From a phage, in assembly GCA_024614665.1 (NCBI GenBank), contig GCA_024614665.1_4861.1: DNA of 64,000 nt; one strand, given 5' to 3'. The notes below the pieces were generated by a model. That model worked only from the letters and a program-made list of their open reading frames with translations. It did no database searches and was not told the origin of the DNA. Each line of letters begins with the position of its first letter. Position 1 is the stretch's first letter. The position numbers were made by a program, and so were the translations under genes. Below, piece by piece: positions 60,131 to 60,826 of the stretch.

Positions 60131-60826
60131 TTAGAGGAATTCGTCGTAAGAATCAGTGGTTGCTGGAGGTGCAGATTGTTGCTGTTGATAACCGCCGCCG
60201 CTACGCTGACCACCACCCTGGCCACCGCCGTATCCGCCACGACCGAAGCTACCACCACCTTGCTGGAATTCACGCGGCTTATATTTCTCTTCCAGGTTCT
60301 GTAAGAACTTCTCGAAGTTAGTGATAAACGCACGTGCACAGCGCTCAGCAAGTTCTAAATCAGAAACCTGCTGGCCGTCGCGGAAAATACGGAAACCTTT
60401 CGGGTAGGAGAAGTAGAACTTCTTCTGGCGGGCACCAACGCCCTGGATTTCACCGGCAATAGCGATGAACGGTACCAGGTTGTCTTCACGGCCAACAATC
60501 AGACTAACGGGCGGTTTGTTGCCGTTTTCGTTAGTAAACTTCAGCATACTCTTTTCGCTCTTACGCAGACAATCCTGCAGAGCTTCGATAATGGTACGGC
60601 AAACCGTAATCGGTGCAGAGAAATAGAGACCTTCGCCCTTACCAAAAGAGTAGCTAAACTTCATAGTTTCAACATCACCGTTGAAATCATTCGGTTCAAT
60701 GTTGAGTTTACGCGTACGGTTTTGCTGATCCGGTTCGGTCTGCGGGTAAAGCCATTTGTCTTTGAAAATTTCTTGGTTAATCATCATTTCATCCTTTTCG
60801 GAAAAGCGGTCTAGTGGTTCACACAT
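60131..60826 (-). CDS. SSB-like protein candidate (Gly/Gln-rich RGG-type tail with acidic C-terminal tip)
   Basis: C-terminus QQGGGSFGRGGYGGGQGGGQRSGGGYQQQQSAPPATTDSYDEFL resembles the disordered tail plus acidic tip of single-strand DNA-binding proteins; possible alternative ATG at about 60787 with AAGGA RBS. Confidence 0.35.
   Translation of the reverse strand: MCEPLDRFSEKDEMMINQEIFKDKWLYPQTEPDQQNRTRKLNIEPNDFNGDVETMKFSYSFGKGEGLYFSAPITVCRTIIEALQDCLRKSEKSMLKFTNENGNKPPVSLIVGREDNLVPFIAIAGEIQGVGARQKKFYFSYPKGFRIFRDGQQVSDLELAERCARAFITNFEKFLQNLEEKYKPREFQQGGGSFGRGGYGGGQGGGQRSGGGYQQQQSAPPATTDSYDEFL

Follow-up and report, generated by a model that had tools for sequence, protein, structure and literature searches.

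The gene at 60131..60787, on the minus strand of the 64,000-nucleotide stretch of phage DNA analysed here (the window), is best explained as encoding gp29 of Salmonella phage SPN3US, which is very probably the ortholog in that phage of ChmC/Imp6. ChmC/Imp6 belongs to the core proteins of the Chimalliviridae, jumbo phages that form a nucleus. The name ChmC covers phiKZ gp67, PhiPA3 gp61 and Goslar gp176 (PMC11077065), and phiKZ gp67 is Imp6 as well (bioRxiv 10.1101/2024.03.27.586873). As such, gp29 is a divergent, previously unannotated member of a known family. It is strongly diverged in sequence from the other members, and the evidence for homology comes from profiles, fold and synteny.

The 4-kb stretch around the gene shares 99.6% identity with Enterobacteria phage SEGD1 and 99.4% with SPN3US, jumbo phages of about 240 kb that belong to the genus Seoulvirus. 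Compared with the GenBank record of SPN3US, the window is reversed. SPN3US is among the phages in which a phage nucleus has been shown experimentally (PMC13282480). The gene corresponds to SPN3US_0029 (RefSeq ACQ60_gp237), whose product is annotated as a 'hypothetical protein'. Amber mutagenesis identified gp29 as an essential, non-virion protein, and this 2016 genetic study listed it among the SPN3US essential genes without a function or a phiKZ homolog (PMC5105663).

The list of open reading frames presents the gene as 231 amino acids at 60131..60826 on the minus strand, and the preliminary description of this DNA used the same limits. The reading frame is real. Its start codon, however, is most likely located at 60787 or 60784 and not at the ATG at 60826, because MMINQ or MINQ is where homologs, the PHROG profile and the existing annotations start and an AAGGA sequence precedes this site. 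Specifically, both the RefSeq and the GenBank annotations begin at MINQ, relatives open with M(M)INQ or M[AG]MIN, and the PHROG profile match to the 231-residue reading begins at residue 17. The AAGGA Shine-Dalgarno sequence lies just 5' of the ATGATG at 60787/60784. Residues 1-13 of the longer reading are covered by no homolog or profile, and this reading was rejected. The resulting coding sequence is 39-42 nucleotides shorter at its 5' end and specifies 218 amino acids with both methionines, or 217 amino acids from 60784.

Homology and predicted fold

Pairwise searches are blind to the relationship between gp29 and ChmC. BLASTP comparisons of gp29 with phiKZ gp67 (E 1.2) or Goslar gp176 are not significant, and hhalign assigns a probability of only 14% when a 13-sequence profile is matched to the single phiKZ gp67 sequence. 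Profiles are needed on both sides. With tails removed, so that only folded domains are compared, hhalign of a profile built from 24 SPN3US-clade sequences against one built from 10 ChmC sequences gives 98.4% probability (E 7e-15, 155 columns). The same probability is reached with 66 ChmC sequences (E 5e-15 over 162 columns), versus 0.1% and E 0.42 for a reversed-profile control.

Other searches point to the same family. A hidden Markov model of the ChmC domain finds members of the SPN3US clade directly, with P0030 detected at 2e-7 and gp29 at 21.7 bits. The bridging homolog P0030 sits on a contig of only 1 kb. gp29, phiKZ gp67, PhiPA3 gp61 and Goslar gp176 share PHROG 3284. A Foldseek search of BFVD with gp29 recovers a 231-amino-acid protein of Klebsiella phage Eowyn (E 1e-9) as well as matches from phage Miami and Pseudomonas phage EL, and a 231-amino-acid gene of Eowyn is also a tblastn match of phiKZ gp67.

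The AlphaFold2 model of gp29, which was computed with a 15-sequence alignment, has a mean pLDDT of 76.9. In this model 111 residues score at least 90, and values are mostly above 90 outside residues 173-218. The folded domain (60266..60787, minus strand; residues 1-174) adopts a Whirly/PUR-like beta-beta-beta-alpha / beta-beta-beta-beta-alpha topology. Its best structure match is StWhy2 (3n1h, 8.0); others are plant PBF-2 p24 (1l3a, 7.7), trypanosome MRP2 (7.6), Pur-alpha (3k44, 6.1) and trypanosome MRP1 (5.5; MRP1/2, 2gia). The name SSB is absent among the 60 structure matches listed for the model. As modelled, residues from about 1 to 172 or 174 are a Whirly/PUR-class fold that binds single-stranded DNA or RNA.

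This structural kinship leaves little trace in the primary sequence. The Whirly, MRP and Pur-alpha proteins named above have 5-11% identity to gp29, and no Pfam profile match of gp29 to the Whirly (PF08536), PUR or MRP families was found. They also differ from gp29 in having four strands where its first repeat has three, and in lacking the disordered tail, which is phage-specific. The sole match in a Pfam scan is a sub-threshold, low-complexity hit to FoP_duplication (E 0.089), and no SSB match was found at E <=0.1. A search of PDB sequences matches only the tail, to Gly-rich linkers of engineered or unrelated proteins, and none of these matches is meaningful.

The preliminary description had called gp29 an SSB-like protein and, with its N-terminal fold unverified, had named an OB fold as the thing to look for there. 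The predicted structure is instead of the Whirly/PUR type, consisting of two beta-sheet-plus-helix repeats, and an OB fold is not predicted. What stands of the SSB-like label is a single-strand nucleic-acid-binding fold joined to an SSB-like tail; identity with a classical OB-fold SSB does not. The broader idea that gp29 is a single-strand nucleic-acid binder survives in the light of this model.

gp29 and the ChmC/Imp6 proteins share PHROG membership, profile homology of their folded domains, a Whirly-like fold and a position in a conserved gene block. Both also have, behind the folded domain, a low-complexity tail of about 45-70 residues that is acidic at its end, and both are essential for infection. 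Identity in the profile alignment is about 19%, and gp29 has a shorter N-terminus and a shorter disordered region. Its folded domain is less basic, with a pI of 8.4 versus 9.3-9.4.

Most of the basic residues that were mutated in PhiPA3 ChmC (K30, R35, R44, K48, K59 and R63) appear not to be conserved in gp29. In the hhalign alignment, where identity is 19% and strand register is uncertain, only K30 aligns to a basic residue of gp29 (R26), and three of the six positions align to conserved glutamates (E31, E40 and E52). These six positions vary also among classical ChmC proteins. Other lysines and arginines are conserved on the strands. In the gp29 clade, K27, K43, K50, K76, K79, R100 (in a VGR motif), K122, K123, K130, R136, R149 and R152 are each either invariant or conserved at a level of 90% or more.

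The disordered tail and its acidic tip

The last 44 residues of gp29, QQGGGSFGRGGYGGGQGGGQRSGGGYQQQQSAPPATTDSYDEFL, include 15 glycines, eight glutamines, three tyrosines and only two arginines, and the pI of the tail is 4.6. AlphaFold2 assigns pLDDT values below 50 to the 46 residues from 173 to 218. This region contains a Gly/Gln/Tyr-rich disordered linker with one GRGG (60158..60265, minus strand; residues 175-210; pLDDT 33-43), followed by the acidic and hydrophobic tip TDSYDEFL (60134..60157, minus strand). Asp215 in the tip does not vary in the 15-sequence alignment. All 24 SPN3US-clade members carry a G/Q/N-rich linker and, after it, an acidic and hydrophobic tip with the consensus T-T-D-D-[FY]-D-[ED]-[FM]-[FLVI]. 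Judged from these sequences, the tail architecture is conserved and is no chance feature.

The gp29 tail resembles that of E. coli SSB beyond what composition explains. The two tails align with a score of 73, compared with 47 +/- 7 for composition-matched shuffles, and only 5 of 2000 shuffles reach the observed value. A QQSAP[PA]A stretch is common to both. When the last 22 amino acids are compared with the SSB tip, the z value is 3.8, and one of 300 shuffles does as well. The preliminary description had likened the C-terminus to the flexible linker and acidic tip of SSBs, and this proposal is borne out by the predicted disorder, the conservation of the tail in 24 of 24 clade members and a likeness to the E. 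coli SSB tail that exceeds shuffled controls.

Bacterial SSBs (E. coli Ssb, PF00436) and gp29 thus share an overall plan, in which a single-strand-binding core is followed by a Gly/Gln-rich disordered linker and an acidic tip whose end is hydrophobic. Tail residues also follow each other in a similar order (QQSAP[PA]A ... D-x-F/L). In contrast, the core of gp29 is Whirly/PUR rather than OB, its tip lacks I-P-F and its orthologs prefer RNA. The ChmC orthologs form tetramers and tail-dependent condensates, and E. coli SSB phase-separates too (bioRxiv 10.1101/797431).

The tips of other ChmC proteins are closer to that of SSB. The 66 classical ChmC sequences have the C-terminal consensus G-G-F-D-D-[DS]-I-P-F, and their terminal residue is Phe in 56 cases and Trp in six. 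E. coli SSB ends in DFDDDIPF; among ChmC family members, P0083 ends in KDFDDDIPF and P0086 in GGFDDDIPF. When the last 22 residues are compared with the SSB tip, z values of at least 3 relative to same-residue shuffles are obtained for 44 of the 66 classical ChmC sequences and for 9 of the 24 from the SPN3US clade. At the sequence level, then, the SSB tail likeness first seen in gp29 holds and is stronger for the ChmC family as a whole. The gp29-clade tip, [FY]-D-[ED]-[FM]-[FLVI], differs from the F-D-D-D-I-P-F of most ChmC proteins, and the tips of Goslar and Eowyn ChmC likewise deviate from DDDIPF. The gp29 tail is also G/Q/Y-rich where that of ChmC is N/G-rich, with Gln in place of Asn.

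Enterobacterial hosts are expected to carry a highly conserved DDDIPF tip on their own SSB. Since the tips of the SPN3US clade, Goslar and Eowyn do not track this host motif, the sequences argue that, in these phages at least, the tip has a partner encoded by the phage and not an SSB-interacting protein of the host. The published account of ChmC describes a disordered C-terminal region of 50-70 residues in which an N/G-rich part is followed by an acidic S/D/E-rich end; it calls this end no more than an S/D/E-rich 'electronegative cluster' and does not name SSB anywhere (PMC11077065). We found no discussion of the match between ChmC and SSB tips in the searchable literature, and two recent reviews also make no mention of SSB. 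The SSB-Ct-like tip is family-wide, and it offers a testable handle both on the partner of the ChmC tail and on the lack of a recognisable SSB in phiKZ-like phages.

Gene neighbourhood and proposed role

gp29 resides in a gene block whose order is conserved among phiKZ, Goslar, SPN3US and a metagenomic contig of 239.5 kb. The block consists of an SbcD-like gene, a gp66-like gene, a gene X, a gp68-like gene, Imp1, a gp70-like gene, a small reverse gene and RNAP beta. gp29 occupies position X, which is that of gp67, and the order agrees gene for gene with phiKZ and Goslar. On one side are gp28 (60853..61689), a homolog of phiKZ gp66 and Goslar gp177 (BLASTP 6e-32 and 2e-23; PHROG 3229), and gp27 (61686..62837), an SbcD/Mre11-like phosphoesterase homologous to phiKZ gp65 and Goslar gp178 (PHROG 100, E 3e-64; BLASTP 2e-31 against gp65). 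The Pfam Metallophos match of gp27 has an E value of only 0.033, which is below the cut-off. On the other side lies gp30 (58361..59995), a homolog of phiKZ gp68 (BLASTP 3e-12; PHROG 3209), which is reported to be a subunit of the non-virion RNA polymerase (bioRxiv 10.1101/2024.03.27.586873). It is followed by gp31 (56648..58348), an ortholog of phiKZ gp69 (Imp1/PicA), both of which belong to PHROG 3141 (6.6e-157 and 2.7e-179), and by gp32 (55268..56635), a homolog of phiKZ gp70 and Goslar gp173 (BLASTP 5e-12 and 2e-14; PHROG 3520). All of these genes are on the minus strand. The C-terminal tail of gp31 is Gly/Leu-rich and that of gp32 is Gly/Leu/Ser-rich.

The preliminary description had noted an SbcD/Mre11-like gene two genes away from gp29, and such a gene is indeed present there, with gp28 alone in between. 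The replication/recombination module that it derived from this neighbour is a weak inference, because genes for subunits of the non-virion RNA polymerase and for the import factor Imp1/PicA are part of the conserved block as well.

A stem-loop of 8 bp, GCCCAAGG-TTTC-CCTTGGGC, is located 20 nucleotides downstream of the gp29 stop codon (60092..60111, strand unassigned). Read on the gene strand it has a GAAA tetraloop, and its T-run is on the side of the plus strand. A function as the intrinsic terminator of gp29 is not supported, as the T-run lies on the opposite strand.

Among the orthologs of gp29, PhiPA3 ChmC is a Whirly-fold homotetramer that binds ssRNA with a Kd of 58 nM and ssDNA with a Kd of 184 nM, an approximately 3-fold preference for RNA (PMC11077065). 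ChmC is abundant, expressed early and associated with the phage nucleus, and the PhiPA3 protein is located on the nuclear shell and not throughout the DNA. In cells it crosslinks to phage mRNAs, and the signal peaks near start codons. Condensates of PhiPA3 ChmC with RNA require the C-terminal tail, and RNA binding is intact without it. When ChmC is knocked down in Goslar, mRNA stays in the nucleus, the levels of phage proteins fall and virion production is blocked (all PMC11077065). phiKZ gp67 (Imp6) binds directly to Imp1 (gp69), the selective import factor, in a stable 2:1 complex, and a host topoisomerase is imported into the phage nucleus (bioRxiv 10.1101/2024.03.27.586873).

By analogy, gp29 would coat single-stranded nucleic acid in and at the phage nucleus, for the most part nascent transcripts of the phage. 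These are probably made by the neighbouring non-virion RNA polymerase. Binding would occur through the beta-sheet face of the domain, where the invariant or nearly invariant basic residues include K27, K43, K50, R100 of the VGR motif, K122, K123, K130 and R136. The tail could provide weak multivalent contacts. Its tip might either dock on a partner protein in the manner of an SSB tip or fold back on the basic binding face. At the shell, gp29 probably works together with gp31.

With gp29 identified as very probably orthologous to ChmC/Imp6, and the neighbouring gp31 as orthologous to Imp1/PicA, a function is assigned to an essential SPN3US gene. SPN3US is genetically tractable and amber mutants exist, making a classical genetics of nucleus-transport factors possible.

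Alternative readings

The strongest alternative is that gp29/ChmC serves as the phage's own non-canonical SSB. According to this proposal, which we consider possible but unlikely, a Whirly tetramer would cover the ssDNA of replication and recombination intermediates within the phage nucleus, and its tip would recruit a polymerase, a helicase or SbcCD. Such a function could coexist with RNA binding. A global survey detected no SSB in phiKZ-like phages (PMC4889955), none of the SPN3US RefSeq coding sequences is annotated as one, and a phmmer search with E. coli SSB, which is a test of low sensitivity, gives no match in the six-frame ORFs of SPN3US. However, OB folds are difficult to recognise, and a failure to find an SSB by sequence therefore counts for little.

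Several properties of the family fit this proposal. StWhy2, the best structure match, is a plant Whirly protein from a family that acts in organelle DNA repair (PMC3245945), and the PhiPA3 tetramer does bind ssDNA (Kd 184 nM; PMC11077065). The family tail is like an SSB linker with an SSB-Ct tip, ChmC is abundant and early (PMC11077065), gp29 is essential (PMC5105663) and its position near an SbcD-like gene is conserved. Against it, the orthologs prefer ssRNA and crosslink to phage mRNAs, and their knockdown results in mRNA retention and low protein output. PhiPA3 ChmC is found on the shell rather than throughout the DNA, and the gene block is as much one of transcription and import as of recombination.

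In a broader form, ChmC/Imp6 proteins including gp29 would be the chimallivirus counterpart of SSB, Whirly tetramers whose SSB-type linker and tip dock phage or host partners in replication, recombination or import. This form is equally doubtful, and the published RNA data on ChmC make any SSB-analogue reading secondary. If true, it would explain the 'missing SSB' of phiKZ-like phages and would tie the RNA- and Imp1-binding roles of ChmC to DNA metabolism.

A different use of the tip is as a decoy or adaptor. In this scheme, the tail would mimic host SSB-Ct and thereby sequester host repair and replication enzymes that dock on SSB or pass them to the Imp1 import machinery. In many classical ChmC proteins (such as P0083 and P0086) the C-terminus equals SSB-Ct exactly or nearly so, and the 44 of 66 with z values of at least 3 versus shuffles are in keeping with mimicry. 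DDDIPF is described as a conserved motif on which many partner proteins dock (PMC5872125, PMC10018359). Imp6 binds Imp1, and a host topoisomerase is imported (bioRxiv 10.1101/2024.03.27.586873). However, I-P-F is replaced by [FM]-[FLVI] in the SPN3US clade and the Goslar and Eowyn tips also depart from the host motif, and we regard a decoy as improbable.

A reading of gp29 as a eukaryotic-type (hnRNP/FUS) RGG-box protein that binds RNA mainly through its tail is very improbable. The 'RGG/Gly-Gln-rich' label of the preliminary description is right about glycine and glutamine, and the tail does contain tyrosines, one GRGG and the weak, sub-threshold FoP_duplication match (E 0.089). In RGG boxes, multiple RGG/RG repeats stand close together within a disordered region that is basic, whereas the 44 tail residues of gp29 hold that one GRGG and two arginines at a pI of 4.6. 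Moreover, the tail of PhiPA3 ChmC is needed only for condensates and is dispensable for RNA binding (PMC11077065). The RNA-binding alternative that the preliminary description had raised is nevertheless closer to what is known of ChmC orthologs, even though the RGG motif given as its reason does not hold.

The primary reading of the preliminary description, an OB-fold SSB like those of bacteria, T4 (gp32) or T7 (gp2.5), is favoured solely by the Gly/Gln-rich linker with acidic tip. This reading is almost certainly wrong. The description itself named the lack of a predicted OB fold among the things that would count against it, and the confidently modelled repeats, the Pfam scan without an SSB match at E <=0.1 and PDB sequence matches confined to the low-complexity tail rule it out as far as prediction goes.

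With gp29 taken as the ChmC/Imp6 ortholog, the SPN3US clade indicates which features of the family persist when its members diverge deeply. Those kept are the fold, the VGR motif and a tail that ends in an acidic and hydrophobic tip. The Asn-rich composition of the tail, the I-P-F tip and, it appears, the specific basic residues have not been kept.

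The C-terminal tip of the ChmC/Imp6 family

The extreme C terminus of gp29 (minus strand, 60131-60787; the tip is encoded at 60134-60157), the SPN3US ortholog of ChmC/Imp6, was set against the classical ChmC homologs, comprising proteins P0032-P0089 and loci L002, L004 and L007-L010. The family ends in the tip G-F-D-D-[DS]-I-P-F, and the final residue is Phe in 56 of 66 sequences. Two metagenomic members carry the ending (D)FDDDIPF, which is the same as the C-terminal tip of E. coli SSB. The ChmC paper and two reviews make no mention of SSB, and no SSB is annotated anywhere in the whole SPN3US record (NC_027402).

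The linker of the family is composed of 42% Gly and 19% Asn. Two of the homologs, P0053 and P0065 from JGI metagenomes, bear the source name 'uncharacterized membrane protein YgcG'; the Gly-rich tail has probably led to a wrong annotation.

Low-complexity tails on neighboring proteins

Imp1/PicA (phiKZ gp69) is the nuclear import factor that binds Imp6. Its SPN3US ortholog is gp31 (minus strand, 56648-58348); both proteins match PHROG 3141, and BLASTP between gp31 and Goslar gp174 gives an E value of only 0.056. The C-terminal end of gp31 is a Gly/Leu-rich tail, GGLDPLGGLDLGGGLGGIGGNGLGNGLID. In gp32 (minus strand, 55268-56635; PHROG 3520) the C terminus is likewise a long tail of low complexity, with much Gly, Leu and Ser, and therefore three proteins of the SPN3US block have disordered tails. 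The homolog of gp32 in phiKZ, gp70, has a Met/Gln/Gly-rich tail, and Goslar gp173 has a Gly/Met/Pro-rich stretch.

Gene arrangement and flanking elements

The SbcD-like ORF (gp27) begins with a GTG start codon and overlaps the end of its upstream gene by 20 nt (62818-62837). Its stop codon shares a 4-nt ATGA overlap with the start of gp28 (61686-61689). These two overlaps suggest translational coupling across this section of the block. The SPN3US genome annotation also places a recombination mediator of the DprA type at NC_027402 88449-89048 and an SbcC-like protein with an SMC domain at 168900-171410 (loci L015 and L016), both distant from the SbcD-like gene and outside the studied region of the window.

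A stem-loop with a perfect 8-bp stem, GCCCAAGG-TTTC-CCTTGGGC (60092-60111), is located 20 nt past the gp29 stop codon. For the phage polymerase it may act as an element of the transcript 3' end or of transcript stability. The scan assigns it as a plus-strand terminator, and no plus-strand gene ends there; read on the gp29 strand, it is preceded by an A-run and has no T-run behind it.
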